A DNA stretch of 64,000 nt from an uncultured delta proteobacterium (GTDB lineage: Bacteria > Myxococcota_A > Polyangia > Polyangiales > Polyangiaceae), in contig CAVOKF010000003.1 of the NCBI GenBank assembly GCA_963696385.1, positions 480,001-544,000 on the forward strand, written 5' to 3'. Shown piece by piece: positions 31,356 to 51,000 of this stretch. The notes below the pieces were generated by a model, which saw only the letters and a program-made list of their open reading frames with translations, searched no databases and was not told the origin of the DNA. The number at the start of each line of letters is the position of its first letter. Position 1 is the first letter of the stretch. A program made the position numbers and the translations under genes.

Positions 31356-34300
31356 ATGGATGGGAGTCAGATCGACGCGCTCGTGCACCGGCTCGTTGCC
31401 AACCCGCACGACGAGCAAGCGCTCGCGGCAGCACATCAGGCCGGGACGGCGGATCCAAAATCGTACGCCATGTTCCTGGAGCGCGTGGGAACGCAATCCC
31501 AGGATCCGGCTTACGCTTCCCACTGGCTGAGTGAGGCCGCAAACGTCTGGTCGACGACCCTCGGCGATGCGCACCGCGCGGCGCGTGCGCTGATGCAAGC
31601 GATCGATCGCGATCCGACCCAACGGACGGCCGCAGAGCGACTTGCCGAACTCTACCGTCAAAAGGGAGACATCAAAGCGCTCGTTGCCTTGCTCGAGGTG
31701 CGTGCCAAGGCCTTGACGCCGCTCGCCGGACAGAGCGACGAAGTTCGCGGAGAGCTCGGAGCCATTCACGAAGAGCTCGGTCGGCTGTGGGGCGAGAGTC
31801 TGCAGCAGCCGAAGAAGGCGCTCGACCACTTCCGTCGCGCGGTCGAGTGCGATTCGAGAAACGCTTACGCCGTTTACGGCGCGAGAGAGATCCACAAGTC
31901 GCTCGGGCAATGGCGCGAGGCTTTCGACTTGTACGAGGCCGAGCTTGCATTCGAGCGGGATCCAGCCCGGAGAGTGGCGTTGTTGCGCGACGAAGCGGCC
32001 GCGCGACGCGCTGCGGGCGATCTGAGGGGCGCGTCCCTGGCCATCGCAAACGCGCGTGAAAGCGACTCCCTGGATGCTGCGCTTCAGCAAGAATACGCTT
32101 CGACGATCATCGAGCGCATCGCGGGAGGCGAGGCCGTATCTGCTCCGGAGCGGACCGTTGGCGCCGAGCTCCTCGTCGGCCTGGCGGAGGCCTACGACGG
32201 CGAGCACGGGCTCGCGTATTCGAGCGGCGCTCTCGACATCGACCCCGGCCACGATCGGGCGATGCAGCTTTACGCGTACTACGCGCGTGCCCTGCAGCGC
32301 GAGGGCGACGTTTCATCGCGCTATCTCGCCTACATTCAAACGAATCCGGACGGCGCTCTTGCCCCCGACGCGCGATGGTCGCTCGCCGCCAGCTACGAGG
32401 CGGCCGGGCAACCGAACGAAGCCATCCGCGTTCTCGAGCCGCTGGGCGTTGCAGGCGACCCGCAAGCGACTGCGCACCTGCGGGAGCTCTACGCGCTCCT
32501 GGGGGAGAGCGCTTCGCCGATGGTCACCCCGCCTGCGCCGGCGTCTCCCGCGCCGAGCGAAACGGCCGCGACGCACCCACCGCCCCCCCCGCGACCGTTG
32601 AGCGCCATCGAGAAGGCGCAATCGCTGGCTACGGCGGGGAAGCGCGACGAGGCGTACGCGGCGTACCTTGGCGTCCTCGACCGCGATCCGGCTCAGGCCG
32701 AAGCCCTGTCCTGGGTCGAGGATTACCTGCGGACGACTCGGGAGTACCGCGCACTGCGCGATGTTCTGGTGGCCGCGGCGGGCGCGCCGGGCAGCCCCGT
32801 CGACTGGCGGCAACAGAAACTGCGCGAAGTGGCTGCGCTGAGCGAAGGCAACCTGCGCGACCCGGGGGGCGCGATAGAAGCTTGGAAGCAGCTTCTTCTC
32901 TTGGATCGCGGCGACGAGGTGGCCCGCCAGTCACTGACGCGCGCGCTCGAGAAGTCTCAACGCTGGGACGACCTCGCCGCTCTTCTCGAGCGCGAGGCGA
33001 CTCAGGAAAGCGATCTCGAGAAAAAAATTGCGCTCGAAAAGCGGCTCGCCGCACTGCACGAGCACAAGACGCTCGATTTCGGCAAAGCGGGAGAGGCGTG
33101 GGAGCACATCGCCCATCTCACGCCCGAAGACGACGATGCCATCCTGACGGCGTCTCTGCTCTACGAGAGAGCGGGCACGTTCGAACGTGCCGCACAAATC
33201 ATTGCGGCCGGCGCCTCTGGGGTCGACGACGTCGCAGCCCGCGCCACACTGCTCGAGCGTTTGGGCCTGCTCCGCGAGCGACTCCAGGACGCCGCCGGCG
33301 CCGGCGAAGCTTACTCGGAGGCCGCGACCGCTCAGCCGAGCGCAAGGCTCTGGGACGCAGCCGAGCGCTGCTTGGTCACTGCGGGCCAATGGGAGCGCGC
33401 GGGCCTGGCAACGAATCACCGCTCGGAGCTCGAGCCGACACCGAATGCCAAGGGACGCCATCTCGCGCGCGCGGCCAATCACTTTGCCCGTGCCGGGGAC
33501 GAGAACGCGGTCATCGAAAACCTCGAGAAGGCCACCGACCTCGACCCTTCGAGCGACGAGTTCGCGACGCGTCTTGCAGAGCGCTACACGGTCGCCGCCC
33601 GTTGGCCCGAACTGGTCGCCCTTTTCTCGAAGCGCGGGGATCGGATCGCGGACCGTGAAAAGCGCGTGGCCGCGCGACGCGAAGCCGCGCGTCTTCTCAC
33701 GAGCCGACTCGCTGACCCGCGAGCCGCCAGCGAGACCTGGCGCAAAGTGCTCGAAGACGGCGACGACAAGGAGGCCCTTGAGCGGCTCGTCGACGACGCG
33801 GTCGAGCGCGAAGACTACGAAGAAGCGACACAGCTGCTGCGTCGGTTGGAAAAAGTCGCTGCCGACGGGCCCGAGCGCGCTCGCATCGCGTTGCGTGAAG
33901 CCGAGCTCGTTGCCGACGGTCTGGGCGACGTCGACACGGCGGTCGCACGCTACGAGCGAATCCTCGCCGAGTTGGACTCGCGCTGTCGGCCCGCGCTCCA
34001 GGCCATCGCCGACCTCCAGGAGGCGCGCGACAGGCCGGCGGCGGCCGCCGATGCACTCGAGCGCGAAATCACGCTCGTCGAGGGTGGGGCCGAGCGTGGA
34101 CCGATCGCAAGCCGACTCGCACGCCTGTACGAGCAACTCGATGACTTGCCCAATGCCATTCGCGCGCTCGAGATCGTTCGCATTTCTGATCCGGACGACT
34201 TCGACGCATTGGGCCGCTTGTGCGAACTGTGCGAGAAAACGAAGGAGTGGGCCAAGCTCGCAGAGCTTTTGGCTCAGCGCATCGACGTCGAAGCCGATGA

Positions 34301-36482
34301 TGGCGAGATCAGCCAGTTGACCAACAAGCTCGCTCGGATCCTCGCAGACGAACTCGATCGTGGGGACGAGGCGCTCGCCGTTTTGACCGAACTCGCCGAC
34401 GGCGGCGACGAGGGCATTCGCAAGACCTACGTCGAATTGGGCGATCGACTCGGATGGCGCGGGATCGTCGCGGGCAAACTGGTCGAATGGTGGTTCGGTG
34501 CCAAGCCGAGTGCCGAGCGCACGCCGTTCCTGCGTGGAGCGTTCGAGCGATTCGCAGAAGTCGGGCGCGACGAGGAAGCCGTGCGCGTCGGCTGCGAAAT
34601 CGTACGAAGCAGAGGCGGGGATCTCGACCTGGGCCGGCACCTCGAAGCGCTCGCCGTGAAGATGCGCGATCTGGACGCGATCTCGACCGCACACGATCTG
34701 CTGGAGCGCGACCTCAGCGGCGCCGCAAGGGCCGAGGAGCTCGTGCGGCAAGCGGAAGTGAGGCACAAGAACGGAGCGCCGCGGCTCGAGGCGTTGCACC
34801 ACGGGGAACTGGGTCTGACCAGCATCGCCCCGGCGAAGGCCGAAGAGCTGCTTCAACGTCTTGCCGCGATTGCCGAAGAGGCGACGGACGTGATCGACCT
34901 GTATGAGCGGCAGATCGGACGTTGCAAGACGCCGTCTGACCGCGTGGCGGCACTTGCGCGCGCCGCTCAGGTAGCCGGAGCGTTCGAACAGATGGATCGA
35001 GCGAGGGCGCTGTTCGATCTCGCGCTCAGCGGAACGCCGACGGATGACGCCGTGAAGACGCTCGAGGAGGCGGCGCGAGAGGCGGATGCACACATCGACG
35101 GCAACCGGATGCGCCATGCGCTGAGCATGTCGATGTCGAGCGGCGGCCAGGGAGCCCGCGACGGTGGACGAACGCGTGGCGCACTGCTGCGTCGAGCCGC
35201 TTCCATCGCGCACAGCGAGCTGGGCGACGACGAGCAGGCATTCGCATGGCTGGGAGACGCCCTGGTCGCCCATGTCGAAGCACCGACTCTCGACATGCTG
35301 GACGGGCTCGCCAAGGAGCTTCGGGATCCGCAGCGAGCGGAGGCCACGTTGTCGCGGGCGCTCCTGGACGTCTTTGACGGACCGCTCGTCCGCCAACTTC
35401 TTGCACGGCGGGCCAGACTTCGGCGAGACGATTTGAAAGACAAAGCTGGCGCGGCCAGCGATCTCAAGAAGTTGTACGAACTCGGTCCGGGCGAGCCGTC
35501 GGTCGTCGACGAACTCTCAGCGCTGCTCACGGAAATCGGAGACCACCGATCCAGGGTGCAGCTTTACGAAGATCAGATTCTGCGCGGAAAAGAAGTGCAC
35601 GATCGCGCCGATCTGGCCCGCCGCGTGGCCGGCATGTGGGAAAACGAGCTAGCCGATCCTCGCGAGGCCGCGGACGCGTGGCGACGGGTCCTGCGGATGA
35701 AGCCCGGAGACGCCGAGGCCGTTGCTGGGCTCGAGCGCGCCAAGGCGAACATGCTCCGCCGACCTGCACCAGCGGTTTCCGGCGACGACGTCGATACGAC
35801 CGCGCCGGCGGAGGCTTCTCGGGACGTATCGTCCATGACACCGGAAGCCACTGCTGGCGGATCCGAACTCGCGGGGTCCGAGGAGAGCCCGGGCCGATCT
35901 GGCGTGACGCGAGACGCAAACATGAGCGGGTCCGAAACCGCGCAGACTCGAGATGAGCCCGCGGATTCTGCTGGCGTTCTGCACCAGGGGCAGGACGCCG
36001 AGGGCGCACGATCCACGTACGACGACCGCGCTCGGACGATGGGCATCACCGCCTGCGCGGACGAAACCGGCGACCGCGGCATCGAGGGCGAACCGATCGG
36101 TGCGTCACCCGCCATCACCCCTTCCTTGGTCGACGACCGTCACGACCCGGCCAAGGCCATCCCGATCGCGGTGGAGGAAGCTCTGGCCCCGGACGTGTTG
36201 CCTGTTGTAGACGCCCAGGCATTGCCCGATTCATCGAACTCTGCGCACGACGCGTCCGCGGCGCTCACCCACCCGATCGAAGCCGCGAATGAAGGTGCGC
36301 AAGCCATCGACGGCGAAGAGCTGGCAGCCGACGCCGAAGAAGACGTGGTCATCGCCGACGACTTTGCCGAGATCATCGACGATGAAGACGAAGTCGTCCC
36401 AGTAGAAGCCGAGGCGGCCGCGAACAAGGAGCCATCCGGACCCACCAAGCGAAGCGTTCCGCCCCCGCTGCCGCGTACATAG
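31356..36482 (+). CDS. Large TPR-repeat protein (myxobacterial AgmK-like)
   Basis: 1708 aa of TPR-like helices; acidic tail ending SVPPPLP. Confidence 0.85.
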   Translation: MDGSQIDALVHRLVANPHDEQALAAAHQAGTADPKSYAMFLERVGTQSQDPAYASHWLSEAANVWSTTLGDAHRAARALMQAIDRDPTQRTAAERLAELYRQKGDIKALVALLEVRAKALTPLAGQSDEVRGELGAIHEELGRLWGESLQQPKKALDHFRRAVECDSRNAYAVYGAREIHKSLGQWREAFDLYEAELAFERDPARRVALLRDEAAARRAAGDLRGASLAIANARESDSLDAALQQEYASTIIERIAGGEAVSAPERTVGAELLVGLAEAYDGEHGLAYSSGALDIDPGHDRAMQLYAYYARALQREGDVSSRYLAYIQTNPDGALAPDARWSLAASYEAAGQPNEAIRVLEPLGVAGDPQATAHLRELYALLGESASPMVTPPAPASPAPSETAATHPPPPPRPLSAIEKAQSLATAGKRDEAYAAYLGVLDRDPAQAEALSWVEDYLRTTREYRALRDVLVAAAGAPGSPVDWRQQKLREVAALSEGNLRDPGGAIEAWKQLLLLDRGDEVARQSLTRALEKSQRWDDLAALLEREATQESDLEKKIALEKRLAALHEHKTLDFGKAGEAWEHIAHLTPEDDDAILTASLLYERAGTFERAAQIIAAGASGVDDVAARATLLERLGLLRERLQDAAGAGEAYSEAATAQPSARLWDAAERCLVTAGQWERAGLATNHRSELEPTPNAKGRHLARAANHFARAGDENAVIENLEKATDLDPSSDEFATRLAERYTVAARWPELVALFSKRGDRIADREKRVAARREAARLLTSRLADPRAASETWRKVLEDGDDKEALERLVDDAVEREDYEEATQLLRRLEKVAADGPERARIALREAELVADGLGDVDTAVARYERILAELDSRCRPALQAIADLQEARDRPAAAADALEREITLVEGGAERGPIASRLARLYEQLDDLPNAIRALEIVRISDPDDFDALGRLCELCEKTKEWAKLAELLAQRIDVEADDGEISQLTNKLARILADELDRGDEALAVLTELADGGDEGIRKTYVELGDRLGWRGIVAGKLVEWWFGAKPSAERTPFLRGAFERFAEVGRDEEAVRVGCEIVRSRGGDLDLGRHLEALAVKMRDLDAISTAHDLLERDLSGAARAEELVRQAEVRHKNGAPRLEALHHGELGLTSIAPAKAEELLQRLAAIAEEATDVIDLYERQIGRCKTPSDRVAALARAAQVAGAFEQMDRARALFDLALSGTPTDDAVKTLEEAAREADAHIDGNRMRHALSMSMSSGGQGARDGGRTRGALLRRAASIAHSELGDDEQAFAWLGDALVAHVEAPTLDMLDGLAKELRDPQRAEATLSRALLDVFDGPLVRQLLARRARLRRDDLKDKAGAASDLKKLYELGPGEPSVVDELSALLTEIGDHRSRVQLYEDQILRGKEVHDRADLARRVAGMWENELADPREAADAWRRVLRMKPGDAEAVAGLERAKANMLRRPAPAVSGDDVDTTAPAEASRDVSSMTPEATAGGSELAGSEESPGRSGVTRDANMSGSETAQTRDEPADSAGVLHQGQDAEGARSTYDDRARTMGITACADETGDRGIEGEPIGASPAITPSLVDDRHDPAKAIPIAVEEALAPDVLPVVDAQALPDSSNSAHDASAALTHPIEAANEGAQAIDGEELAADAEEDVVIADDFAEIIDDEDEVVPVEAEAAANKEPSGPTKRSVPPPLPRT

Positions 36483-36487
36483 CGCGT

Positions 36488-37405
36488 TCAATTCACTGGG
36501 GGTGCGCTTTCGGCAGGTACCCCCAACCGAATGTCGCCATCCCCCACTGCGGCTGGCTGGCCCAAGACGAAGGCGTCGTTAACGTCGCCGTGCCCAAAGG
36601 GCGCGCCGAACAGCACGGGGATACCGAGCGATCGCGTCCGCTCTTCGAGAACCTCCCCGATGGTGGGCCCATCTGCACCCTCGACGCGGCAGCGGTCGAA
36701 CGCTCCGAAGACGAGCGCGGACACATTCGCGAGATGGCCGCCCAGTACGAGAGAGGTCAGCATGCGATCGATTCTGTATGGCAGCTCGGCAACATCCTCG
36801 AGCGCGAGAACGCTTCCGCGGGGCACCGAGAGGCGACCGCCGGCGGCCAGGGCATGAAGGACTGCGAGGTTGCCACCGATCAGGGGACCTTGCGCGAACC
36901 CTCCGTGCAACACCCGTAGCCCCCGCCACTGCCGTCGAGCGGTCGGCCTCTCGAGGGCCCCAATCCAAGCCGCTCGCAGACGTGGCGTCGCCCGACTTCC
37001 CAGGCCAACCACGTTCGGACCGTGAATGGATGCCACCCCCGCTCGCCACGCCGCGGCATGGAGTACCGTGATATCGCTGAAGCCCACGAGCCACTTCGGC
37101 CGCAGGGCGAACTTGCCCCAAGGCAGATCGTCGATCATGCGTATTGCACCGTAGCCTCCACGAGTCGCGACAATCGCGCCGACCTCCGGGTCGAGCATCG
37201 CGCGCGAAAGCTCACTTCTCCGCCTGGCGTCGTCGCCCGCCAGATACCCGTCGCGGGAGAGTGCCCCTACGGACATCCGAAGTCGATAGCGGGCCCGAAG
37301 CCACCCCAGACCTCGCCAGAGCTCCTCTCGAGAACACGGACCCGACGGAGCGACCACGGCAGCCATGTCGCCCGGCGCGAGCGGTGCCGGAAATGCCAGC
37401 TGCAC
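36488..37405 (-). CDS. ldcA: LD-carboxypeptidase (S66)
   Basis: TRGGYG, GFSDIT, GGNL, LEDV, FGH triad motifs. Confidence 0.92.
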   Translation of the reverse strand: MQLAFPAPLAPGDMAAVVAPSGPCSREELWRGLGWLRARYRLRMSVGALSRDGYLAGDDARRRSELSRAMLDPEVGAIVATRGGYGAIRMIDDLPWGKFALRPKWLVGFSDITVLHAAAWRAGVASIHGPNVVGLGSRATPRLRAAWIGALERPTARRQWRGLRVLHGGFAQGPLIGGNLAVLHALAAGGRLSVPRGSVLALEDVAELPYRIDRMLTSLVLGGHLANVSALVFGAFDRCRVEGADGPTIGEVLEERTRSLGIPVLFGAPFGHGDVNDAFVLGQPAAVGDGDIRLGVPAESAPPVN

Positions 37406-37745
37406 CTGCGAAGCATAACGCCGTTGAGCGCGGGCGGTTCGGCCTTTCCGGCCCTGCTCGTGGACCAGTTCGCGCGCTGTCGCGATACCGCGACGAACGT
37501 TCTACGCACTCCATCGAGACGTCGGTCGCGCCGCGCAAAGGACTCGCCAGATGGCACAATGTGACACACTGCCGCGGCGCGAGCGCTGCGGAAACTTCGC
37601 ACATGGGCAGGCACGAGCCGTGTTGCGGCAACGATCGATGAACCAGCCTCGAACCGACAAAAGCGCGAGCGACTCGGCACATCGCCCGGATCGGAGCGTG
37701 TTGGCGCCCGCTGGAGTTCGCGGGGCAGTAGACTGCGTGCCCATC

Positions 37746-39227
37746 ATGCGCCTTCGCGCCGTTCTAGGTTTCCGAACTTTGTTCACGCTGCGCCGCTCCT
37801 GGATATGGCTTCTCTTGGTCGTTGGCCTCATCTACGGGTGTCGGTTGAATCGACCCGAAACAGGCCGCCTGGAAGACGGCAAATGGCTCTATGCGTACGA
37901 CGAGAACTATACCGTTTTGACAGCGCGTCGCATCGCAGTCGGCGACAAGAACGTATGGGACGCGTGGCGGCATCCGGACGACGGGGCGGACCGGCGATTT
38001 ACGTCGATTTTCAGCACAGCCGATCTGGGTAACGACGACAGTCGCTATGAGTGGGTGCATCCGCCAACGCCCCGGGTCATCATGGCCGCGATCATTCGGA
38101 TCGCCGGGATGAATCCGGCCCTTTATCGCATTCCGAGCGTGCTGCTCGGGCTGCTCATCGTCGGGATGGTGTGGGTCGTCGGCAACCGGATGCGCGGGCC
38201 TGGTTTCGGCCTGTTCGCGGCGACACTCACTGCGGCCGATGGGTGGCTTTTCTGTCTGTCGCGCGTCGGAATGACCGACATCTATTACATCTCCATGACC
38301 GTCGCGGCGTACGCCGCTTTTTACATCTACTGGACAACCCCAACACGACGCATTCGCTGGATCGCCATCGTCGGCGCCGTGTGCGGCGCAGCACTCGCCA
38401 TGAAATGGAGTGCGCTCGCCCCCATCATGGGTCTGGTCGGGCTCACCGTCGCGCGCATCGCGCTGGATTGGCGAAACTCACCCGCGACTCGCGCCCAGAC
38501 GGTCCGAGAGGCGGGCGCCGCACTCGCGTCGTTCGCAGTCCTGCCCCCGCTCATTTACTTTGCGTCGTTCTGGCCATTCTTTGCGGCCGGCCATTCCCTC
38601 GACGAGTGGGTCAAGCTTCACAAAGCGATCGTCGACTACAATATGGGCGCGCCCGCGTCGTCGCCGGGATCTTCACGCTGGTATCAATGGCCGCTCGACC
38701 GCGGGTCTACCTGGTTTCTCACACGGGCCAAGAACGGATCCTGCCAGTACACGTACGCCTCGGGCAACTGGTTCGCGTGGTGGCCATTCGTCCCCGCAAT
38801 GTGTTACGCGGCCGAGCAGTTCACGAGCGAACCCAAGTTCGAGCGCGCGTTCGTCATCGTGGGTGGCTGCGCCACCTGGCTTCCCTACGCGATGGTGCAT
38901 CGGTTCGTCTACACTCGCTACTTCGCCGCCACCGTACCGTTCAGCGCTCTCGCCATTTCGATGGCCATCTTCGATCTCGACTCCTATTGTCGCGCGTGGA
39001 TCGAAGAGATGAGAGCTGCCCGGTCGGGCGAGGCCGCGGGGCACAACGACACGATGGCGCGGCTGAGGGCGCTCGCGTCCCGGATCGGGCAGGCTCTGCG
39101 TCCGATGTATATCGGCGCGGCCGTCGTGTTCTTCGCCCTTCGCTACCCGCTGTGGGCCGGAGTGCCGCTGCCATGCAATTCCGTCCAAGGAAGGTCGTTC
39201 ACCGAATGGGTTCATGCCTTCCGCTGA
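37746..39227 (+). CDS. PMT/GT39-like membrane glycosyltransferase (start uncertain, 37551-37746)
   Basis: YDE.Y, EWVHPP, SRVGMTD, KWS, SS.WYQWP motifs. Confidence 0.85.
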   Translation: MRLRAVLGFRTLFTLRRSWIWLLLVVGLIYGCRLNRPETGRLEDGKWLYAYDENYTVLTARRIAVGDKNVWDAWRHPDDGADRRFTSIFSTADLGNDDSRYEWVHPPTPRVIMAAIIRIAGMNPALYRIPSVLLGLLIVGMVWVVGNRMRGPGFGLFAATLTAADGWLFCLSRVGMTDIYYISMTVAAYAAFYIYWTTPTRRIRWIAIVGAVCGAALAMKWSALAPIMGLVGLTVARIALDWRNSPATRAQTVREAGAALASFAVLPPLIYFASFWPFFAAGHSLDEWVKLHKAIVDYNMGAPASSPGSSRWYQWPLDRGSTWFLTRAKNGSCQYTYASGNWFAWWPFVPAMCYAAEQFTSEPKFERAFVIVGGCATWLPYAMVHRFVYTRYFAATVPFSALAISMAIFDLDSYCRAWIEEMRAARSGEAAGHNDTMARLRALASRIGQALRPMYIGAAVVFFALRYPLWAGVPLPCNSVQGRSFTEWVHAFR

Positions 39228-39269
39228 AGGCGACCCGTCGGTAGCGTCTGCCAAAGCGCCCGATCGTTT

Positions 39270-39369
39270 GGGGCGAAGCCCCAAGAAGTCATTTTAGTAC
39301 AGCGCCAGCCTGCAACGCAGACGTACCCAGCGCAGCAGGGTACCGCTCCCACGGGGCGCAGTACCGAAG
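39270..39369 (-). repeat. Copy A of a ~100-nt structured dispersed repeat (copy B at 58795-58895)
   Basis: Shared core CTGCGTTGCAGGCTGGC(A/G)CTGTACTAA..TGA.TTC.TTGGGGCTTCG; includes the hairpin TTGGGGC-GAA-GCCCCAA at 39268-39284. Confidence 0.85.
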
Positions 39370-39462
39370 AGCGCCTTGACCCCCCGTTTCCCCCGAAACC
39401 TCACAGCATCGCGCTACCGACGGAGGCGAAACGATTTCGGCGCACGCGCTCGGACGGCCCTT

Positions 39463-39687
39463 TCACCGCAGCCGGCCATCGAGCGCGATTGCCGCGTTGG
39501 CCGTCATGGTCGCTTCTCGAAGCAGGCGCAGCGCCGCGGTTTGATCCGCCGACGGAGGCGTGTTGGCAAGGATGACCGCCGCGAAGTGCTTCGCGGCGGC
39601 GTGGATCGCTTCATAGTGATGGAGCTTTTCGGGCGTCGGATGGTGGTGGGTGAAAACGTAGTCGGGATCGAAATCGGCGGGGCTCAT
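39463..39687 (-). CDS. Small helical-hairpin protein resembling the Acb2/Tad1-hairpin family
   Basis: FTHH.P....YEAI..AAK.FA.VI..NTP.SADQT.A.R.LREA.MTANAAIAL; strong SD AGAGGAG upstream. Confidence 0.7.
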   Translation of the reverse strand: MSPADFDPDYVFTHHHPTPEKLHHYEAIHAAAKHFAAVILANTPPSADQTAALRLLREATMTANAAIALDGRLR

Positions 39688-39745
39688 CGAGATCTCCTCT
39701 TGCTCGATGAATACCCCCGACCCGACCGTTGTCGCACGGCTTAAG

Positions 39746-40240
39746 CTAAGGGGAGGTCGCTGAAGTCGCTAGGGCGGCCGTTCCCTCGTACCCGCAGCTC
39801 GCGGGCCCGAGAGCGGCCGTGGCGTTCGTCGTGGAGGCGTCGACGCTCGTCGGAAGGATGAACGAGACCGTCTGGACGTAGTTGCTTGGCGGGTTGGTGA
39901 CGGCCGTCGATGTGCCGCCGCACGAGACCGTTTGTCCGCAGATGAGGTCGATTTGACAGCTGCCCGCCGGACACCCCACGCAGGTTTCCCCGTTCAACGA
40001 CACGGACGCCCCCGACAGAGAAATCTGGATCGACTGCGGAGTGGTCGACGAGCAGTCGCCGCTGAGATTCTCGCTCTGCCCGGTCGGCGACAGCGTCAGC
40101 GAATACGTTCCGTCCGGCTTCGCGCACTCCGGTGCGGTGGTCGCCCCCGACGAGGACGAACAGCCGATGGATGCCGCAGTCGCCGCCGTTGCGACCACCC
40201 AAAAGGAGATCCGGCGCGAGAAAGCGCGTTCGTGAGACAT
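39746..40240 (-). CDS. Lipoprotein, hypothetical
   Basis: Signal peptide ending SIGC, Cys-rich mature part, GGAGG-like SD. Confidence 0.7.
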   Translation of the reverse strand: MSHERAFSRRISFWVVATAATAASIGCSSSSGATTAPECAKPDGTYSLTLSPTGQSENLSGDCSSTTPQSIQISLSGASVSLNGETCVGCPAGSCQIDLICGQTVSCGGTSTAVTNPPSNYVQTVSFILPTSVDASTTNATAALGPASCGYEGTAALATSATSP

Positions 40241-40280
40241 CGTGGCCACTTCCCCTCCCCCCCACGGGTCGCGCGACACT

Positions 40281-41618
40281 TCAGGGCACGCTACCCGATG
40301 TCGCCATCACGGATTTCACATCACCGCCTTCGTCCTCGTCACCGTCCTTCGGATTCGGAAACGGAGCCTTCCAAGCGGCGATAACGCTCGGAATAGACGC
40401 GATGAGAACGAAGATGAAGAATGTACGATACCCCATGCGATCGGCCAGCCACCCGCTGGCGCCCTGTGTGGGGATGAGAACCAGGTTCATGAGCGACGTG
40501 GCGAATGCGTAATGCGTCATCTTGTACTTGCCGGGCGCAATCTGCTGCATCATGTACAGCATGTTTCCGGTAAATCCGAAACTATAACCGAACTTCTCGA
40601 TGCTCACGAGAAGCAAGATGAGCGTGAAGGGCAACTGCCGGTCGGGTGTCGCCGCGTGGCTCAAGAAAATGTAGCAGAGATGCGGGATATTCATGCAGAG
40701 CGCGAGAACGAACAGCGTTCGCTTCAGCGTGTATTTTGCAATGAATACGCCGGCGAGCAACCCGGCTACCGAGCCCATGACCGTGCTCACCGTTCCGTCG
40801 ACCCAGGCCTTCTGGGTCAGCGTGAGACCGAGTCCCCCGCTCGCCAACGGAGCCTGGATGAAAAGGGGCGCTTCTTGCAACAAGAAGCCTTCGCCGCTTC
40901 GATACAAGAAGACGAACAGAAGCATTCCCCAAATCGATTTTTTTCGGAAGAACGCTTTGACCTCGTCCCAGAACGTCTCGAAAATCTCCGCGGCTCCCTC
41001 GGGCCTATGGGAGATAGACCCCGTCGGAAGCATGAAATAATGATAGACGCCGAGCGCCCCCATCGATGCCGACGCGAGTCCGACGGCCTCGGTCCAGGCG
41101 GTCTTGGCGTCGTGACCCGCGCGCTCCAACGCGCCGGCGGTGGCGACGATCGCCGCCGTGGCGAAGATGCGGCCGACGTTCCAGCAAACCCCTTGGACCC
41201 CGATCCACGCCGCTTGCTGTTCTTTTGTGAGGGCGCTGATGTAGATGCCGTCTACGCAAATGTCCTGAGTGGCCGACGCAAACGCGAGAATCCACAACGT
41301 CCCGATGACTAGCGTGAAATAGTTCGGCAAGTGGAGAGACACGCCGACAGCGGCAAGGAGTGCGCAGAGAACGAATTCCATCGAGAGGACCCAGAACTTT
41401 TTGGTCCGGGACATATCGAGGAAGCCGGCCCAAAACGGCTTGAGTGACCATGCGATACCAATGGAAGCCGTGCTGAGGGTAATTTGACCGTCCGTGTAGC
41501 CCAAATCCTTGAACATCGTGCCCACGACCCAGGTCACCATCGCAAAAGGGATCCCCTCGGCGAGGTACGAGGTCGGCACCCATGCTCCGGGATGGCGCAC
41601 GCGATTGCTCCCGTTCAT
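40281..41618 (-). CDS. AmpG-family MFS permease
   Basis: WVPTSYLAEGIP, WSLKPFWA, SATQDICVDG.Y, FGYSFGF. Confidence 0.9.
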   Translation of the reverse strand: MNGSNRVRHPGAWVPTSYLAEGIPFAMVTWVVGTMFKDLGYTDGQITLSTASIGIAWSLKPFWAGFLDMSRTKKFWVLSMEFVLCALLAAVGVSLHLPNYFTLVIGTLWILAFASATQDICVDGIYISALTKEQQAAWIGVQGVCWNVGRIFATAAIVATAGALERAGHDAKTAWTEAVGLASASMGALGVYHYFMLPTGSISHRPEGAAEIFETFWDEVKAFFRKKSIWGMLLFVFLYRSGEGFLLQEAPLFIQAPLASGGLGLTLTQKAWVDGTVSTVMGSVAGLLAGVFIAKYTLKRTLFVLALCMNIPHLCYIFLSHAATPDRQLPFTLILLLVSIEKFGYSFGFTGNMLYMMQQIAPGKYKMTHYAFATSLMNLVLIPTQGASGWLADRMGYRTFFIFVLIASIPSVIAAWKAPFPNPKDGDEDEGGDVKSVMATSGSVP

Positions 41619-41842
41619 GGCCGGGGTCGTAAACGAGCGGGCGCCGATTGTAAACGCCGAGTTTGCCTCGCATCGGGCCCCTGCCGCGCGGGCTTCGGAG
41701 CCTTGACTCTCGCCCAGGCACGCCGAAGCCTCGGGCATCCCGAACCCGCGTGACTCACGGGCTGTGGGCGAGCAGCGACGCTTCGTACGTCCTGAGCGGC
41801 CCTTAACCGGTGCGTCGAACGTCCCGTCGCTCATGTGGGGAG

Positions 41843-42103
41843 ATGCCGAAGCGCTCACCTGGCCCGAGCCCCACGCGACGGCGGGCTCGGCCCTTCCATC
41901 AGCTGTCCCGGACGCTAGGAAAGCGGGTGCGCGAGCTGCGCGTCGAACGCGGCTGGAGCCAGCGCTCCGCGGCCATCCACATCGGAATCGGGGCCGCGGT
42001 GGTGCGACGGCTCGAGACCGGTTCGGCGAACCCTTCGCTCGCTGTCCTCGTCAGCGTCGCGCGCGCTTTTGGCGTACCGCTCAAGCGATTGCTCGGACCG
42101 TAG
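41843..42103 (+). CDS. XRE-family HTH regulator
   Basis: LGKRVRELRVERGWSQ...RRLETGSANPSL; SD GGGGAG. Confidence 0.85.
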   Translation: MPKRSPGPSPTRRRARPFHQLSRTLGKRVRELRVERGWSQRSAAIHIGIGAAVVRRLETGSANPSLAVLVSVARAFGVPLKRLLGP

Positions 42104-42220
42104 CGCGGCAAAGTCACAGTGTGTCGGCTCTGCTCCTGCCGCTTCGCGATGATGGGCCGCCCAATCTACACACCCCCGTCACGTCAATCCGCCGCCCCCC
42201 TCGATGCCCGAGTGGGCGCA

Positions 42221-44125
42221 TCAATGCGGAATCGACGGCGGCGGCGGCGGGATTTGAAAGTAATCCCATGCCGGGGTGTGGTTGTGCTCCGTCTCCGGTT
42301 GATTCCAGAAGTAGAGGGCGCCAAATTGCTGCCAATTGCCGGCCGCATCAATCACCAGCGCCGTCAGGTAAAGCTGCGGACCGTCGGCGCTGTAGGGATC
42401 GCGCGTCGAACTGAAGACCAGCCAATAAAACTTTCGCCCGTCGGCGACCGTGCCGACGGCGGGGGCCCACTTCGGCCAACTGTTCGTCACGCCAGGGCTC
42501 ACCCTGCCGGTGCAAGCAGGCGGATCGTTCACGGCGAGGCGACCCACCGGAGCGACGGTCGCGGCATCCGAATTATTGGGCGCACCGACAACGTAGAGCT
42601 CGGCCAGTGGGTTACTGTACATCGTCGTTCCGCTCGCCACTTTGTCGAACGCGATCAGCTGATCGTCAGGCGACCAGGTCGGGTAGTACTCGCTCGCCGC
42701 CGGGTCGCTCGCGCCCGCCAGAGGCGCCGCGGTACCCCCTGCCTTGTCCGCATACGGGATCACGTAAACGTCCGCCGGACCGACCGACAAACGACCATCC
42801 ATATTGGCGTTCGTGGAGACGTACGCGATCTGCGTGCCGTCGTGGCTCCAACTCGGCGCACCCGCGTGGAGCGGATCGCCGGTCCGCTGGAGGATGCCCA
42901 TGGCGGGAGCGGTGGTCGCCTCGACGTCGATCCAAGCGAGCTCGGAATCTGCGTTATCCATGGGGTTATAGGCCGTAATTTCGATCCGATCGCCCGCGGT
43001 CCAATGAGCGGGCGAAAACGTGTGTATGCCGAGCGTTCCCGTCTCGATCACCGCACGCCCCGCGGCTCCGAGCCAGGGCGGAAGACCGCCGGTCTGGTTC
43101 GGCTGAATATCCGCGAATCCGTTGGCCCATTGGTCGTAGCTCGATGAAAACGACGCATAGTCACCATCGGGCGTCGCGTTGTGACATCCGATGCAGGTCG
43201 TCGCGTACTCGGTGACCTGCCCCGGCTGCAGAACCGGAGTTACGGTTTCGTCTCCCACGGCGAAGCCCTTGAGCGCAGTCCCACTCGTGGGAGTCCAGTA
43301 AACGATCGTGCCGGGGGCGATGACGGGAGCGATGCCGATCGTGCCGGCAGACCCGAGCGCCTCGCCGGTCAACGCGTCCCCCGCGAGAGCTCCGCCGCGA
43401 ATCGTCACGTTGATGGGCTCATCGTAGGAGTCAGCCCGGAGCGCATCCCACATCGCGTCCGGCATCGTCCACTCGTTCGACGTCGTGTAGACGACGAGAG
43501 GATTCGTTTGATTGGCAATCTGAAGCCGAAGCTCAAAAATATTTTCATCTTGCGGAACGACCCAGCGGAAGCGGGGCCGCAGCCAATTGTCGGGATAGAG
43601 TGCGCCAAGCTCCGGCTCGATCAGGCACGGACCGCCCGTCTGGGCACCTTGCGACGAGGCGCCGAAGAGCTCCGGCGCGTTGCTCGGGAGTGTCGTGACA
43701 ACGGACCCGTCCGAGTCCGCTCCGTCGACTGCCTCGGACGCGTCGGCGTCCGATCCGTCGAGAACCCCGGCATCCGTGTCCACTCCGTCGAGAACCGGAG
43801 TCGATGGAAAATCCGCATACATCATCCCGGCCACTTTGGTATCGGGTTCGCCGCTGGTGCCCGACGCGGAACCGTCGCGAGCGAGGGTGATGCCGCACAC
43901 CAGACACGGTCCCCCGTCGTTGAACGCCGCCAGGCCACTCGAAAGACTCGCGTCGACTGCCCCATTCGACGCGCTCGATGAACTGTGGAACGTGGAATTC
44001 CCGTTCGAACCCGCCCCGAGCGGCGTCGCGCCTCCCGCACACCCCGCAGCGACTGCGATGAGCAGCCCGACGGCGACGGAAATTGGGTGCCTGATAGACG
44101 CTACGAGACGGTACTGTAGCCTCAT
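42221..44125 (-). CDS. TolB-like (PD40) beta-propeller lipoprotein
   Basis: Lipobox AAGC, CIGCH, PSWSHDG, YPTWSPDD, NSWPKW, NHTPAW. Confidence 0.82.
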   Translation of the reverse strand: MRLQYRLVASIRHPISVAVGLLIAVAAGCAGGATPLGAGSNGNSTFHSSSSASNGAVDASLSSGLAAFNDGGPCLVCGITLARDGSASGTSGEPDTKVAGMMYADFPSTPVLDGVDTDAGVLDGSDADASEAVDGADSDGSVVTTLPSNAPELFGASSQGAQTGGPCLIEPELGALYPDNWLRPRFRWVVPQDENIFELRLQIANQTNPLVVYTTSNEWTMPDAMWDALRADSYDEPINVTIRGGALAGDALTGEALGSAGTIGIAPVIAPGTIVYWTPTSGTALKGFAVGDETVTPVLQPGQVTEYATTCIGCHNATPDGDYASFSSSYDQWANGFADIQPNQTGGLPPWLGAAGRAVIETGTLGIHTFSPAHWTAGDRIEITAYNPMDNADSELAWIDVEATTAPAMGILQRTGDPLHAGAPSWSHDGTQIAYVSTNANMDGRLSVGPADVYVIPYADKAGGTAAPLAGASDPAASEYYPTWSPDDQLIAFDKVASGTTMYSNPLAELYVVGAPNNSDAATVAPVGRLAVNDPPACTGRVSPGVTNSWPKWAPAVGTVADGRKFYWLVFSSTRDPYSADGPQLYLTALVIDAAGNWQQFGALYFWNQPETEHNHTPAWDYFQIPPPPPSIPH

Positions 44126-46003: not shown

Positions 46004-47806
46004 CTACGCAAGCACGCGAAGCGCACGGGCCCCCTTGCCTCCACCGCTCGGGCCGGCGGGGGCTTGGGGCGGCGGATGCCAGACCGCAAAATCCTTCGCC
46101 AGAGGGCCGGGAAGCGTAGGCTGCGAACGCCGCTCCAGCAGTTGAAAGTCGTGCGTCGCGAGGAGATCGAGCGACGCGACATCCGACGACGGCTGCGCCG
46201 CCCAGCGCTCGATCACATCCGCATTGCGCGCGATGACCCCATGTTGAGGATCGCGGCTCATCGCCTCCGAGAAGCGCTGTTGCATGCCTACGGCGTCGCC
46301 TCGCAGCGCGGCGATGCAAGCCAGATAGTTGAGCGCGAGCCCCGGCGCCGGATACTGCAGCTCGAGAGCCCGGCTCGCGTGGCGCTCGGCCTCGTCGAGC
46401 CGGCCCTCTCGGAAGTACGCGCCGGCCAAATCGAGATGCGCCGCGTGGTGGTCGCCCAAACGGCCCAGGATGGCCTCGTACTCCACGATGCCTTCGCGGA
46501 ACCCGTCGCGGAGGCCCTTGTTTCGCCGGAACCAATCGCGAAGGAACGCCGTGTCCTCGTCCGAAGCGTCGAACGTGGTTTTGAGTTCCTGAAAGTCGCG
46601 CTCGAAATAAAACTCGGCGTCGAGCCAGCCGGCCGCCACGGCCAAGTCGTAATCGCGCGTTCCCGGATAAACGGACAGGCAAGCAAAAATGGATTGATGC
46701 GGTTTGGCCCGTTCGAGAAACCTCAAGGTCTCCGCAAAAGTTTCCTGCGTCTCCCCGCGGTTGCCGATCATCATGTAATACCGGATCTTGATGCCGTACT
46801 TCTTCGCGAGTTCGCTCGAAGCGATGATCTCGTCAGGCGTAATCTTCTTGTCGATGGCGTCGAGAATTTTCTGCGAACCGGACTCGACCCCAAGGCTCAG
46901 CCGCTCGCATCCAGCGAGGCGCATCTCTCGCAAGAGCTCGTCACCGAGAACGTCAACGCGGGTGTCGCAGCTCCAGAGGAAGCGGATGTTGCGCTCCCGA
47001 ATTCCCCGGCAGAGAGCAAGCACACGCTTGCGGTTCGTCGTGAACGTGTCGTCCTTGATCTGAAGCATCTTGACCGGCGCCCGCGCGACCGCCTTCTCGA
47101 GGGCATCGAGCACGTACGGAACGGACTGACCGCGGTAGCCCCGCCCCCAGCTCGCCTCCGCACCGCAGAACGTGCAACGCCACGCGCAGCCGCGCGACGT
47201 CATCACAATGTGCGTGTCGAAGTAGTCGTGCACGGAAGCGAGCGCGTCGAGATCTTCGATCGCTGCCCGCTTTGGCGCAACGGCGAGCCGATGCCCATCC
47301 CGATAGACCGTTCCGGCGATGCCGGCCGGGCTCTCGCGCCGCTGCAATCGGTCGAGGATCTCGAGAAAGGTCTGCTCGCTCTCGCCGACGGCGATCGTGT
47401 CGATGTCTTCGTGGTGCGCGAGCATCTCTCGCGCGAGTGGCGTCGCGTGAGGACCGCCAACGACGACGTGCGATCTCGGGTGGATGCGCTTGATCTCGCG
47501 CGCAACCAGGGCCACCCCGCGCCGATTGGCCGTCCAACACGACAGGCCGTACACGTCGGCCTCCAAGACACCGATCGCGTGCTCAACGTGCCGCCAGGGA
47601 TAAGCGGATAGGTTGATGACCTTTACCGAATGTCCGGCGCGAAGCGCCTGCGCCCCGAGTGCGAAGAGACCGTACGGAGTCTGGAAGAAATCGCCGTCGA
47701 GGTCGCCCTGCGCGTACTCGGTCGGAGGCCCGTCGCCGAGAGGGTCGGGGGCTTCACCCGGCAAGGGGATTTTCCACGGGGGTGGGTACAACAACGCAAC
47801 GCGCAT
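46004..47806 (-). CDS. B12-binding domain radical SAM protein with C-terminal TPR
   Basis: GGPHAT, GESE, SRGCAWRCTFC, DDTF, GVESGS. Confidence 0.9.
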   Translation of the reverse strand: MRVALLYPPPWKIPLPGEAPDPLGDGPPTEYAQGDLDGDFFQTPYGLFALGAQALRAGHSVKVINLSAYPWRHVEHAIGVLEADVYGLSCWTANRRGVALVAREIKRIHPRSHVVVGGPHATPLAREMLAHHEDIDTIAVGESEQTFLEILDRLQRRESPAGIAGTVYRDGHRLAVAPKRAAIEDLDALASVHDYFDTHIVMTSRGCAWRCTFCGAEASWGRGYRGQSVPYVLDALEKAVARAPVKMLQIKDDTFTTNRKRVLALCRGIRERNIRFLWSCDTRVDVLGDELLREMRLAGCERLSLGVESGSQKILDAIDKKITPDEIIASSELAKKYGIKIRYYMMIGNRGETQETFAETLRFLERAKPHQSIFACLSVYPGTRDYDLAVAAGWLDAEFYFERDFQELKTTFDASDEDTAFLRDWFRRNKGLRDGFREGIVEYEAILGRLGDHHAAHLDLAGAYFREGRLDEAERHASRALELQYPAPGLALNYLACIAALRGDAVGMQQRFSEAMSRDPQHGVIARNADVIERWAAQPSSDVASLDLLATHDFQLLERRSQPTLPGPLAKDFAVWHPPPQAPAGPSGGGKGARALRVLA

Positions 47807-48089
47807 CCGGAGAAGCATTGTAGCTCCGGGCCGACGCGTTATGTGCAGGGCTTCACTTGGACGGAACCTCTTGCCCTCTCCGGCCCGGCGCGCGCCCCCA
47901 CGTCGGCCTCGGCGTGAACGACACGCAACGGCTGCCCCGCGGCGGGCGAAGGGGAAAAAGACCGATGGCCATTCCGCTCGGCAGACTCGCCTCGCTCCGC
48001 GCCGTTCCGAACCGCCGCCCCGGCTGGAGCCGCTCGACACGCTCCCGGATGTTCGCAAACATCTGCCACGCGAGGTCACCACCCCCCCG

Positions 48090-51000
48090 ATGACCATCCT
48101 CGTCGTTGCCGAAAAGCCAAGCGTCGCGCGCGACATTGCGCATGTGCTGGGGGCCCGCACCCGGTCCGAAGGCTACTTTCACGGCCCCGGTCACATCGTG
48201 ACATGGGCCCTGGGTCACCTCGTCACGCTGGCCGAGCCGCACGAGATCCATCCCGCGTGGAGAACTTGGCGGCTTGCCAATCTCCCGCTTCTTCCCCCGG
48301 CGTGGCCCTTGGTGGTCGCCGAAGGCACGCGCGCCCAGTTCGAAGTGGTTCGCAATTTGCTGCTGTCAAGCGAAATTCGCACCGTCATTTGCGCTACCGA
48401 TGCGGGTCGCGAGGGAGAGCTCATCTTCCGGTACATCTACGAGGCGGCCGGCGCGACCAAGCCCGTTCGCCGTTTGTGGATCTCGTCGTTGACGCCGGAG
48501 GCCATCGCCGCTGGCTTGCGTACGCTCAAGGATGGGAGCGCGTTCGACCGCCTCGCCGATGCAGCTCGTGGTCGCAGCCGCGCAGACTGGCTGGTCGGGA
48601 TGAACCTGTCGCGAGCGTATAGCGTCCTCCACGACGACAACCTGTCGGTCGGACGCGTGCAGACGCCGACGTTGGCCATGGTCGTGGAACGCGAGATCGG
48701 GATCCGAACCTTCGTGCCCGAGGATTATCTCGAGGTCGTCGCGACCTTCGGCCCGCAGACGCGCGATTTCGATCCCGACGATCCGAAGAGGGAGCGCCAG
48801 ACGTACGAGGGGACGTATCTGCGGGGTGGGACCCGTGAGCGAGACGCGCAGCGCCTGCCGCCGGACGGCAAAGACGCGGCCGCGATCGTCGAGCGCGCCC
48901 AACGCGGCTTCGCACGCATCGAGTCGATCGATCGTCGTTCGCGACACGTGCCGGCACCGGCACTTTACGATCTGACGGAACTCCAGCGTCATGCAAATCG
49001 GATCTACGGGTTTACCGCGCAGCACACGCTCGAGGTCGCGCAGACTCTCTATGAGAAATGGAAGCTTCTGAGTTATCCGCGGACGGACAGCCGACACCTC
49101 TCGAGCGCCGTCGCCGAAACCCTCGCGGCGGTCGTCGGAGCGATCGCCGCTCCCTACCAGGGGCTTGTCGCCGAGGGGACTGGGACACGACCGCTCGGTC
49201 CCCGCTTCGTAGACGACGCACGCGTCACCGACCACCACGCGATCCTTCCGACCGCCACCGTGGCCCCCGCCAGCCTGCCCGCAGACGAGCAAGCGATTTA
49301 CGATCTGGTATGCCGGCGCCTCCTCGCGGCGTGGCACAACAATCACGTCTACGCCGTGACGACGGTGCTCACGACCGTACAGTGGAACGCCGACCGGGAC
49401 CGCTACACGAGCGCGGGAACGAGCATCGAGAACGTGGGGTGGCGCGCGTTGGACCCCCAACCGGCGGGGGCCTCCGAGACTCGTCCGAAGGAAGGCCCAC
49501 GCGCCCCGGACCCATCGTTGCCGGGCGGCCTTGAAGCCGGTCTGCCTCGGCGCGTGGTCAACGCCAGGTCGGTCGCCAAGAGGACCCGACCGCCGCCGCG
49601 CTTCACCGACGGCACGCTGCTGACGGCGATGGAGACAGCGGGACGAACCCTCGACGAAGCCGAGGTCTCTCGTGCCATGCGCGAATGCGGCCTCGGCACA
49701 CCCGCGACACGGGCCGCGATCCTCGAGACTCTGGTTCGACGCGAATACGTCGTGCGCGAGGGAAAGACGCTCCAAGCGACGGACAAGGGAGTGGCGCTCG
49801 TCGAGATCGTGCATGAGCGCGTGAAGAGCCCCGCGATGACGGGCGAATGGGAATCCAAGCTTGCGCGGATCGAGCGCGGCGAGGAAAACCTCGCAAACTT
49901 CATGCGCGAGATCGAGATCTACGTCCGAGACGTCGTGGCAAGTGTGGCGTCGGGCACAGCGACGAGCGCCGGTCCCGATCGCGCGCCCGCCGGAACCCCA
50001 GCATCCCGCTACGTCCGAGACGTCGTGGCGAGTGGGGCGTCGGGCGCGGCGACCAGCACCGATCCGGATCGCCCGCCCGCCGGAACGCCGACACACCGCA
50101 CGGCGCGGTCGAACGACCTCGGCGTTCTGCTACGGACGTCGTTCGGCTTTCCCTCGTTTCGCCCGTACCAGGAAAACGTCTGCGTCGCGGCAGCGACGGG
50201 CAAGGACGTCCTTCTCGTCATGCCGACCGGCGCCGGCAAGTCGCTTTGCTATCAGCTTCCGGGCATCGCCCGCGGAGGAACGACACTCGTCGTGAGCCCG
50301 CTCATTGCGCTGATGGAGGACCAGGTCGCGCAGCTCTCCCGACGCGGCTTCGCCGCCGAGCGGATTCATTCCGGCCGCAATCGCGCAGACTCGCGCGCCG
50401 TATGCCGGGCTTATCTGGACGGCGCACTCGACTTTCTTTTCATCGCACCCGAGCGCCTCAAGGTACCCGGGTTTCCGGAGATGCTGGCGCGCCGCAAGCC
50501 CACGCTGGTGGCGATCGACGAAGCGCACTGCATTTCGCAATGGGGCCACGATTTCCGGCCCGACTACCGGATGCTGGGAGCACGCCTGCCCCTTCTGCGT
50601 CCCGCACCGGTCATCGCCCTCACAGCGACGGCAACCCCGATGGTTCAAGGCGACATCGTCGACGAGCTCCGACTCGAATCGCCGATGCGCTTCATTCACG
50701 GATTCCGTCGAACCAATATCGGCGTCGAAGTGATCGAACGAAGCCCGGGCGTCCGCGCGGACATCGTCCAGCGCCTGCTCGATAAAGCCGAGCGGCGACC
50801 GGCCATCGTCTACGCGCCGACTCGCAAGGAGGCCGAACAGCTTGCTCAAGAGCTGTCTCCGCGATTGCGCGCCGCTGCCTACCACGCGGGGCTTCGCGCC
50901 AGCGCGCGAGACGACGTCCAATCGGCGTTTCTCGGGGGCAAGCTCGACGCGATCGTCGCGACGACCGCGTTTGGAATGGGCATCGACAAGGCCGACGTTC

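Follow-up and report, generated by a model that had tools for sequence, protein, structure and literature searches.

What keeps a gene of the phage sponge type on a bacterial chromosome? Sponges of the Acb2, Tad1 and Tad2 types are usually treated as phage weapons. A stretch of 64,000 nucleotides (hereafter called the window) from a contig of an uncultured Polyangiaceae bacterium, CAVOKF010000003.1, raises this question, because it carries a short gene of the Acb2/Tad1-hairpin family. The gene and its ribosome-binding motif are placed as follows:

39463..39687, minus strand: 74-residue Acb2-like gene with the Acb2/Tad1 hairpin, a member of a myxobacterial clade marked by 'HH...H29'; based on the open reading frame (ORF), its translation and a match to Pfam PF24729
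39694..39699, minus strand: Shine-Dalgarno motif GAGGAG, 6 nucleotides 5' of the ATG of the target gene, read from the sequence

The ORF comprises an ATG start and 74 codons, without an earlier in-frame start, and its translation is MSPADFDPDYVFTHHHPTPEKLHHYEAIHAAAKHFAAVILANTPPSADQTAALRLLREATMTANAAIALDGRLR. The GC fractions at codon positions 1, 2 and 3 (0.69, 0.48 and 0.76, respectively) show the same pattern as those of the flanking genes. Seven His residues are present within the first 34 positions (14, 15, 16, 23, 24, 29 and 34). A preliminary description, made from the DNA letters alone, had drawn attention to the strong Shine-Dalgarno motif, the early His residues and a particular residue pattern, and all of these were found again in the sequence. 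Given its 188 homologues and ratios of nonsynonymous to synonymous substitution rates (dN/dS) of 0.10-0.15 with the two closest species, the target is a real gene rather than a chance ORF. On balance, we think it somewhat more probable than its negation that this is a functional chromosomal Acb2-like hairpin gene, which represents a phage sponge scaffold captured and kept by the host and re-tuned to another ligand.

Family, clade and chromosomal setting

The target protein belongs to the Acb2/Tad1-hairpin family and is nearer to Acb2 than to Tad1. It matches PF24729 at E 4.3e-10 with 40.1 bits, for a cut-off of 27, and the match extends over residues 14-68, corresponding to profile positions 2-57 of 58. 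Homologues from three other loci (L012, L015 and L017) likewise score above this cut-off, and the target is the single copy to do so in its own genome. PHROG families 31113 and 1454, both without assigned function, match it at E about 2e-12. An NCBIfam search with the target protein gave no family, and phmmer searches of PDB sequences with the single protein gave no match at E up to 10. With a profile of 28 homologues, the top PDB match was 9PTQ (Acb2 homologue 43, hereafter Acb2_43) at E 0.083, followed by T4 Vs.4 at E 0.85. The AlphaFold2 model (predicted local distance difference test score, pLDDT, of 87.3) is a hairpin of two long antiparallel helices, residues 19-42 and 47-69, as defines PF24729. 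When the model was compared with 48,161 representative solved chains, 9PTQ again came first (Z 7.5, root-mean-square deviation 1.8 Å over 61 residues, 23% identity), and the top Foldseek matches in BFVD were phage 'Acb2/Tad1 hairpin' proteins with template modelling (TM) scores of about 0.8. Because the PF24729, profile, structural and BFVD matches agree, the family assignment made in the preliminary description proved correct.

The likeness to Tad1 (CbTad1; PDB 7UAV, 7UAW and 8KBF) is limited to the N-terminal hairpin domain that defines PF24729. Tad1 chains have 116-125 residues, whereas the target consists of the hairpin alone and has no counterpart of the additional part of Tad1. This further structure forms the site for glyco-cyclic ADP-ribose (gcADPR) in Tad1. 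Foldseek comparisons of the target model with the three Tad1 structures were weak, with E values of 8.8-9.3 and TM scores of 0.27-0.34. The only paper found to name PF24729 deals with Tad1-like cassettes located between gp53 and gp52 of mycobacteriophages and has no bearing on the function of the target. No description of the clade to which the target belongs was found in searches of the literature on Acb2 outside phages, Acb2 in myxobacteria, PF24729 or domesticated sponges.

A word-indexed protein search yielded 188 homologues, mostly 74 residues long and encoded on contigs of up to 4 Mb; several of these homologues are named as proteins of Polyangiaceae or Myxococcales metagenome-assembled genomes (MAGs). 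An exhaustive profile search collected 6214 representatives at E ≤ 0.001, including 2114 at E ≤ 1e-10. Relatives encoded in phage genomes include gp101 of Tunturiibacter phage Tunturi_1 (58% identity to the target), whose gene sits among small early genes, and gp146 of Mycobacterium phage Phabba (49% identity). The latter (L031 2977-3405) is a 142-residue protein in which an Ala/Pro-rich extension comes after the hairpin domain; many of the profile-search representatives are likewise extended at the N- or C-terminus, by 40-150 residues.

For a detailed comparison, we used 80 loci from GTDB genomes, the window and two phage proteins, which fall into two groups. The first contains 48 sequences of 73-77 residues from Myxococcota MAGs, mostly Polyangiaceae, with some Polyangiales and one Sandaracinaceae; one of these 48 records carries the label Pseudomonadota. 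The second group (35 sequences) originates from Acidobacteriota, Gemmatimonadota, Planctomycetota, Chloroflexota and Saccharimonadota, and it also takes in archaea, one Polyangiaceae MAG and phages. A maximum-likelihood tree was built by quick search from 83 rows and 74 columns; it is unrooted, and most of its inner forks are unresolved. The 48 sequences form one side of a branch with a Shimodaira-Hasegawa approximate likelihood ratio test (SH-aLRT) support of 97. Outside this clade the tree is taxonomically scrambled, a pattern expected of mobile genes.

The genetic environments of the two groups are different. Genes up to 4.5 kb on each side were compared with PHROGs at E ≤ 1e-6, counting head/packaging, connector, tail, lysis and integration categories as phage hallmarks. 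Hallmark matches were found at none of the 18 myxobacterial clade loci examined, the window among them (136 proteins), vs 10 of 12 loci of the non-myxobacterial relatives (142 proteins), where they range from major head, portal, terminase and tape measure proteins to endolysin and integrase. One of the remaining two relatives' loci has only a RecE-like exonuclease gene; the other has nothing, yet its neighbours are shared with a locus harbouring a head gene. No phage gene was found among the neighbours of the target within about 10 kb in the window. Unlike Acb2, the target is thus not encoded by a phage or prophage, as had been proposed when it was first described as a host gene outside any prophage.

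Purifying selection acts on the gene. Nei-Gojobori estimates of dN/dS for the target are 0.149 with its closest relative L032 (dS 0.21) and 0.10 with L033 (dS 0.90). Within the clade, the median is 0.24 and the maximum 0.63 over the 628 of 1128 pairs with 0.1<dS<1.5, the other 500 pairs being outside that range and mostly saturated. Selection and setting bear directly on the idea that the gene is a decaying remnant of a prophage or mobile element without present function. The family is indeed overwhelmingly phage-borne, with relatives encoded on 316 IMG/VR contigs, and 97% of detectable Acb2 genes in bacterial genomes, as well as nearly all Tad1 genes, are reported to lie in prophages (PMC11724313); the patchy distribution of the gene in its bacterial family and a dispersed repeat adjoining it would also fit decay. 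Such an origin does not agree with dN/dS values of 0.10-0.25, a length kept at 73-77 residues in 48 species, an intact start codon and Shine-Dalgarno motif, host-like codons, the 18 loci devoid of phage genes and the stable synteny within subclades. The selection and synteny data contradict a dead remnant, which we regard as extremely improbable. The word 'domesticated', used in the preliminary description, suits a gene with this clade support, selection, subclade synteny and non-phage context.

For the Myxococcota lineage, a group of soil myxobacteria (mainly Polyangiaceae), the most likely origin is a phage sponge gene that was captured and then retained by the host, because phage-borne diversity is far wider and taxonomically scrambled. 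Apyc1 provides a precedent for a family with both phage anti-defence members and chromosomal ones, the latter being described as housekeeping host proteins that act on nucleotide signals (PMC11724313). Unlike the target, a would-be binder from a family whose phage-borne diversity is far wider, Apyc1 is an enzyme whose bacterial form is proposed to be ancestral.

Histidines at the positions of Acb2 ligand residues

The profile and structural alignments of the target to 9PTQ agree with each other, without gaps and with an offset of 10. Acb2_43 is a phage sponge of the Acb2 family that binds 3' cyclic ADP-ribose (3'cADPR) and inhibits type I Thoeris. The ligand is held by the N-terminal residues T4, H5, L6 and V7 plus K19 and K55, with H5 contacting 3'cADPR and K19 its diphosphate (bioRxiv 10.1101/2025.08.24.671296). 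These six residues map by alignment to H14, H15, H16, P17, H29 and A65 of the target, respectively. In Acb2 of phage PaMx33, cyclic dinucleotides stack on Y11 and salt bridges come from K26 of two protomers (PMC10312549), and Y8 and F82 are given as important in T4 Acb2 (PMC12657218). Y11 and K26 are 15 residues apart, as are positions 14 and 29 of the target. The alignment of the target to solved Acb2 proteins is weak, and in it the base-stacking Tyr (PaMx33 Y11, T4 Y8) corresponds to His14 and the phosphate-binding Lys (PaMx33 K26) to His29.

Comparison of the two groups of sequences showed a clear switch at these positions. Among the clade sequences, 47 of 48 have His at position 14, where 32 of the 35 relatives have Tyr, and position 29 is His in all 48 and Arg in all 35. 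Tyr14 and Arg29 of the relatives correspond to Acb2 Tyr11 and Lys26 by spacing as well as by chemistry. By contrast, position 15 is His throughout (48/48 and 35/35), and neither group varies at F12, D48, R57 or M61. In the best 80 viral homologues from IMG/VR, the residues at 14, 15 and 29 are Y-H-R in 71, H-H-R in 6, Y-H-N in 2 and F-H-R in 1. His29 was therefore found in none of 115 sequences outside the clade (the 35 relatives and these best 80 viral homologues). Clade proteins contain between 3 and 7 His residues (median 5), and only H14, H15 and H29 are fixed, the four others of the target being variable. The His-richness of the protein thus reduces to three fixed residues, of which one is ancestral to the family and, from the sequence comparison, two replace the counterparts of Acb2 ligand residues. 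As Tyr and Arg have given way to His at positions 14 and 29, the ligand, or its dependence on pH or metal, is expected to differ from that of classical Acb2 proteins, which bind cyclic dinucleotides.

Among solved structures, Acb2_43 is the best match by both profile and structure. It resembles the target by its size (a chain of 76 residues, vs 74), its two-helix hairpin, a Pro in the hairpin turn and a [KR]EA-x-M motif, and its ligand-contacting His5 aligns with H15. Unlike Acb2_43, the target is host-encoded, has His at the positions of T4 and K19 and Ala65 at that of K55, and its model, in which the termini are of low confidence, displays neither N- nor C-terminal beta-strands. Of the Acb2_43-type set of ligand residues, only H5 is kept. 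With PaMx33 Acb2 and T4 Vs.4 (8H2J and 7UQ2), the target shares the Pfam hairpin domain, the pair of positions spaced by 15 residues and predicted self-association. It differs from them in having His in place of both the stacking Tyr and the Lys, in its length of 74 rather than 89-94 residues, in its non-phage setting and in its host having no SMODS match. In the weak alignment, D48 of the target faces D61 of the T4 protein, a position that probably corresponds to PaMx33 R67, which makes a canonical cyclic-trinucleotide site improbable. A D61R mutant of the T4 protein appears in the primer table of PMC10312549.

The phage and prophage members of PHROGs 31113 and 1454, none of which is functionally characterised, are closer in sequence, with 47.6-58.3% identity to the target over about 60 residues in four phage records. 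F12, H15, P44, D48, R57, E58, M61 and the ANAAIA tail are common to them and the target. Unlike the target, they have Tyr14 and Arg29, and their genes are located among phage early or structural genes in hosts of many phyla. In one Polyangiaceae MAG, SMAG_U4764, the host and phage types of the hairpin coexist, L053 being a chromosomal copy of the His14/His29 type and L102 a copy of the Tyr/Arg type that adjoins a RecE-like exonuclease gene.

Three fixed His residues might suggest metal binding, with His14, His15 and His29 from several protomers forming a Ni, Zn, Cu or Fe site for buffering or delivery of the metal, in which case the captured scaffold would not serve to bind nucleotides. Their fixation in 47-48 of 48 sequences, the replacement of the relatives' Tyr and Arg by two of them, the seven His of the window copy and the location of the gene beside glutathione peroxidase, ferritin-like and BFD-like [2Fe-2S] protein genes in a subclade of about nine species are in line with this proposal. 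Nevertheless, H15 is just as invariant in the phage-borne relatives (35/35), which makes it a feature of the family rather than a new metal ligand, and the unchanged F12, D48, R57 and M61 speak for continued use of the ancestral pocket. The neighbouring ferritin-like and peroxidase genes are oriented convergently with the hairpin gene, are not co-transcribed with it and are confined to one subclade, and beyond the HH(H) motif the protein has no Cys or His-x-His repeats typical of metallochaperones. We therefore consider a dedicated metal-binding protein unlikely.

Self-association, ligand and role in the host

A prediction of the complex with four copies of the target gave an ipSAE score of 0.78, while the best of three controls reached 0.00. 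Among reference proteins, 20 of 30 solved as one-chain pairs attain the mark, vs 1 of 23 single-chain ones; these counts apply only roughly to the target, as its prediction relied on a custom alignment and four copies. At least 82% of contacts are shared between the three runs, with partner pLDDT values of at least 72, and in the confident interface residues 24-74 of two copies pair with each other in antiparallel orientation. The modelling thus supports self-association, and may at the same time reflect likeness to the already solved Acb2 oligomers.

In the reading that we favour, the protein would assemble into a homo-oligomer resembling the Acb2 hexamer, with pockets at the junctions between the N-terminal F12-H14-H15 segments and H29 of adjacent protomers. 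Such a pocket could bind and sequester a small phosphorylated, probably nucleotide-like, ligand. With two predicted ligand-contact residues changed to His, the target probably binds, for its host, a small molecule other than the classical Acb2 ligands. It would probably serve to buffer or store an endogenous metabolite or second messenger, rather than to control cyclic oligonucleotide-based antiphage signalling systems (CBASS) or Thoeris.

Several observations weigh against a captured and re-tuned sponge. The canonical Tyr and Lys of Acb2 are absent as such, both being His in the clade, and the equivalent of Acb2_43 K55 is an invariant Ala. The fold itself says little, as a two-helix hairpin is of low information and unrelated helical chains reach Z 6.9. 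Of the structural comparison called for by the preliminary description, the top rank of 9PTQ by Z and the BFVD matches stood, but Foldseek searches of PDB with the target model gave nothing at E ≤ 0.001, Vs.4 at rank 2 having a non-significant E of 3.2. The N-terminal segment with H14 and H15 is modelled with only moderate confidence (pLDDT 70-77) and does not belong to the confidently placed interface residues; moreover, the confident interface in the four-copy prediction is of the dimer type only. The direction of transfer is deduced from the breadth of phage-borne diversity, not from a rooted tree. Carriage is patchy, with 9 of the 81 genomes searched in the GTDB family, and the gene is therefore accessory rather than universal. 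Lastly, no neighbour is conserved across the whole clade to indicate a pathway.

A more specific form of host use would be a regulated reservoir for one of the cell's own second messengers or nucleotide metabolites, with no antagonism of immunity, to which the captured sponge was converted by the two His replacements. Candidate ligands would include c-di-GMP, cyclic GMP-AMP (cGAMP) derived from GGDEF proteins, an ADP-ribose derivative or, in connection with the AmpG-like neighbour described below, a cell-wall nucleotide precursor. Protonation of the His residues or a bound metal might gate binding, with release of the ligand upon a pH or metal cue. Stated in this precise form, the proposal seems rather unlikely.

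The preliminary description had suggested that the protein could buffer the immune signals of its own host. The known members of the family do sequester such signals (bioRxiv 10.1101/2025.08.24.671296 and PMC10312549), and a host sponge might similarly buffer CBASS, Thoeris or similar signals, e.g. against autoimmunity. We found no match to SMODS, TIR_2 or ThsB_TIR in the genome of the window, which is 96.4% complete. Searches for SAVED (PF18145) and the DncV-like nucleotidyltransferase (PF21654) in this genome were also negative and are uninformative, as control genomes likewise gave none. SMODS was detected in 11 of the 81 family genomes, i.e., 1 of 9 carriers of the hairpin gene and 10 of 72 non-carriers, and TIR_2 in 25 (3 of 9 and 22 of 72, respectively), in a comparison in which kin are not independent and nine carriers are few. 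Some carriers do possess such genes, namely G020 for SMODS and G005, G020 and G033 for TIR_2. No defence gene was identified as a conserved neighbour at the clade loci. Carriage of the target thus shows no sign of association with SMODS or TIR_2, and the data do not support a role in buffering CBASS or Thoeris signals of the host itself. This counter-evidence covers these two types of systems and does not extend to type III CRISPR, Pycsar or divergent cGAS/DncV-like nucleotidyltransferases (CD-NTases). Altogether, we judge a role in buffering immune signals to be quite improbable.

Returning to the proposed capture of the scaffold, a chromosomal, lineage-restricted clade under purifying selection shows that bacteria can keep a sponge scaffold for their own use. 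The exchange of Tyr and Arg for two His (48 vs 115 sequences) represents a natural experiment on sponge specificity, and this short, easily expressed protein could be used to seek a new ligand, or a new way of buffering signals, in myxobacteria.

Neighbouring genes, transcription and repeats

The other features located around the target in the window are the following:

36488-37405, minus strand: LD-carboxypeptidase (LdcA-like) gene, below the NCBIfam equivalog cut-off
37551-39227, plus strand: PMT-type glycosyltransferase gene
39266..39364, no strand assigned: copy of a dispersed repeat of about 100 bp, intergenic, just 3' of the target stop codon
39746..40279, minus strand: 177-residue ORF directly upstream of the target, with a signal-peptide-like, lipoprotein-like start ending ...ASIGC
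40281..41858, minus strand: AmpG-family-like major facilitator superfamily (MFS) transporter gene, upstream of and co-directional with the target, start codon uncertain
41810..42100, plus strand: 97-residue XRE-type helix-turn-helix regulator ORF with PHROG and NCBIfam matches, divergent from the MFS gene

The gene resides at stable chromosomal places within subclades, not clade-wide. In the subclade of the window, seven species (the window, L032, L033, L035, L036, L039 and L063) have an AmpG-like gene as the immediate upstream neighbour on the same strand, separated from the hairpin gene by 59 to 357 bp or by the extra 177-residue ORF. Elsewhere, the neighbours are the glutathione peroxidase, ferritin-like and BFD-like genes mentioned above (about nine species), an Hsp70-like gene (five species), or elongation factor G, short-chain dehydrogenase/reductase and desaturase genes (five species). 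The eight family-level loci (L012-L019) have no neighbours in common with the window, and synteny emerged only with closer species.

The product of the MFS gene matches MFS_1 at E 2e-14 and the AmpG family TIGR00901 at E 3.6e-41 with 141 bits, below the cut-off of 350 bits. The presence of the LdcA-like carboxypeptidase and AmpG-like permease genes 3 kb apart suggests a cell-wall recycling neighbourhood. The 177-residue ORF has no Pfam or NCBIfam match, and its only homologue was found in the closest relative, L032, at the matching position. A homologue of the helix-turn-helix ORF is also present beside the MFS gene in L063, its link to the target being merely positional.

The region is represented in RNA data, as small parts of 39200-42000 occur in six metatranscriptome runs, four of which we compared with it. 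One RNA-library contig (≥99% identity) covers 39562-39980, reaching from the 177-residue ORF across the intervening 58 bp into the 5' part of the target, and others cover parts of the MFS gene; no contig of the four runs covers the 3' half of the target (39463-39561). These contigs give a weak hint of transcription of the target and of its co-transcription with the 177-residue ORF, as they show neither the strand nor the absence of DNA carry-over. A sigma-70 promoter scan of 39100-42300 revealed no site near the target.

From this arrangement, one could envisage that the hairpin binds a protein instead of a small ligand and serves as an adaptor or regulator, e.g. of the AmpG-like permease or of cell-wall recycling. 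Helical hairpins are common protein-protein modules, and the seven species with an AmpG-like gene directly upstream, the nearby LdcA-like gene and the RNA-library contig spanning the 177-residue ORF and the target would be compatible with such a function. The linkage to an MFS gene, however, concerns only 7 of the 48 clade members and the AmpG-like match is below the family cut-off. The strongest conservation, moreover, is found at residues shared with ligand-binding relatives, including positions that contact the ligand in 9PTQ. We thus doubt that the target is a protein-binding adaptor without a small ligand.

The repeat of about 100 bp next to the target has 42 matches in its own genome, at 76-100% identity, and it is also found in G060, a genome of the same genus. 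It contains a GC-rich hairpin, TTTGGGGCGAAGCCCCAAG, at 39267-39285. With Rfam, the window gave one tRNA only, with nothing meaningful in 39150-39800, and the repeat matches no family.

Among further neighbours within about 10 kb are genes for a PD40-repeat protein and for a topoisomerase-RecQ fusion. In the latter, a 1522-residue ORF (47613-52181, plus strand), Toprim and type IA topoisomerase domains share a single chain with a complete RecQ helicase (DEAD, Helicase_C, RecQ_Zn_bind and HRDC). On the other side, a 1708-residue ORF (31356-36482, plus strand) is rich in Ala, Glu, Leu and Arg with apparent helical repeats; it has a faint armadillo (ARM)-repeat match only (E 7.5e-4) and belongs to no clear family.

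In several prophages of the relatives (L093 7103-7321, L104 7914-8192, and L107, L083 and L088 near 8000), the Tyr/Arg-type gene is inserted in the head/packaging module, in the gap between terminase and portal genes, in that between portal and scaffold genes, or beside the major head gene. This is an unusual site for a presumed anti-defence gene. L083 and L088, from two contigs of one Candidatus Angelobacter MAG, harbour near-identical hairpin genes with the same set of phage structural genes around them, suggesting two related prophages or a duplicated element.

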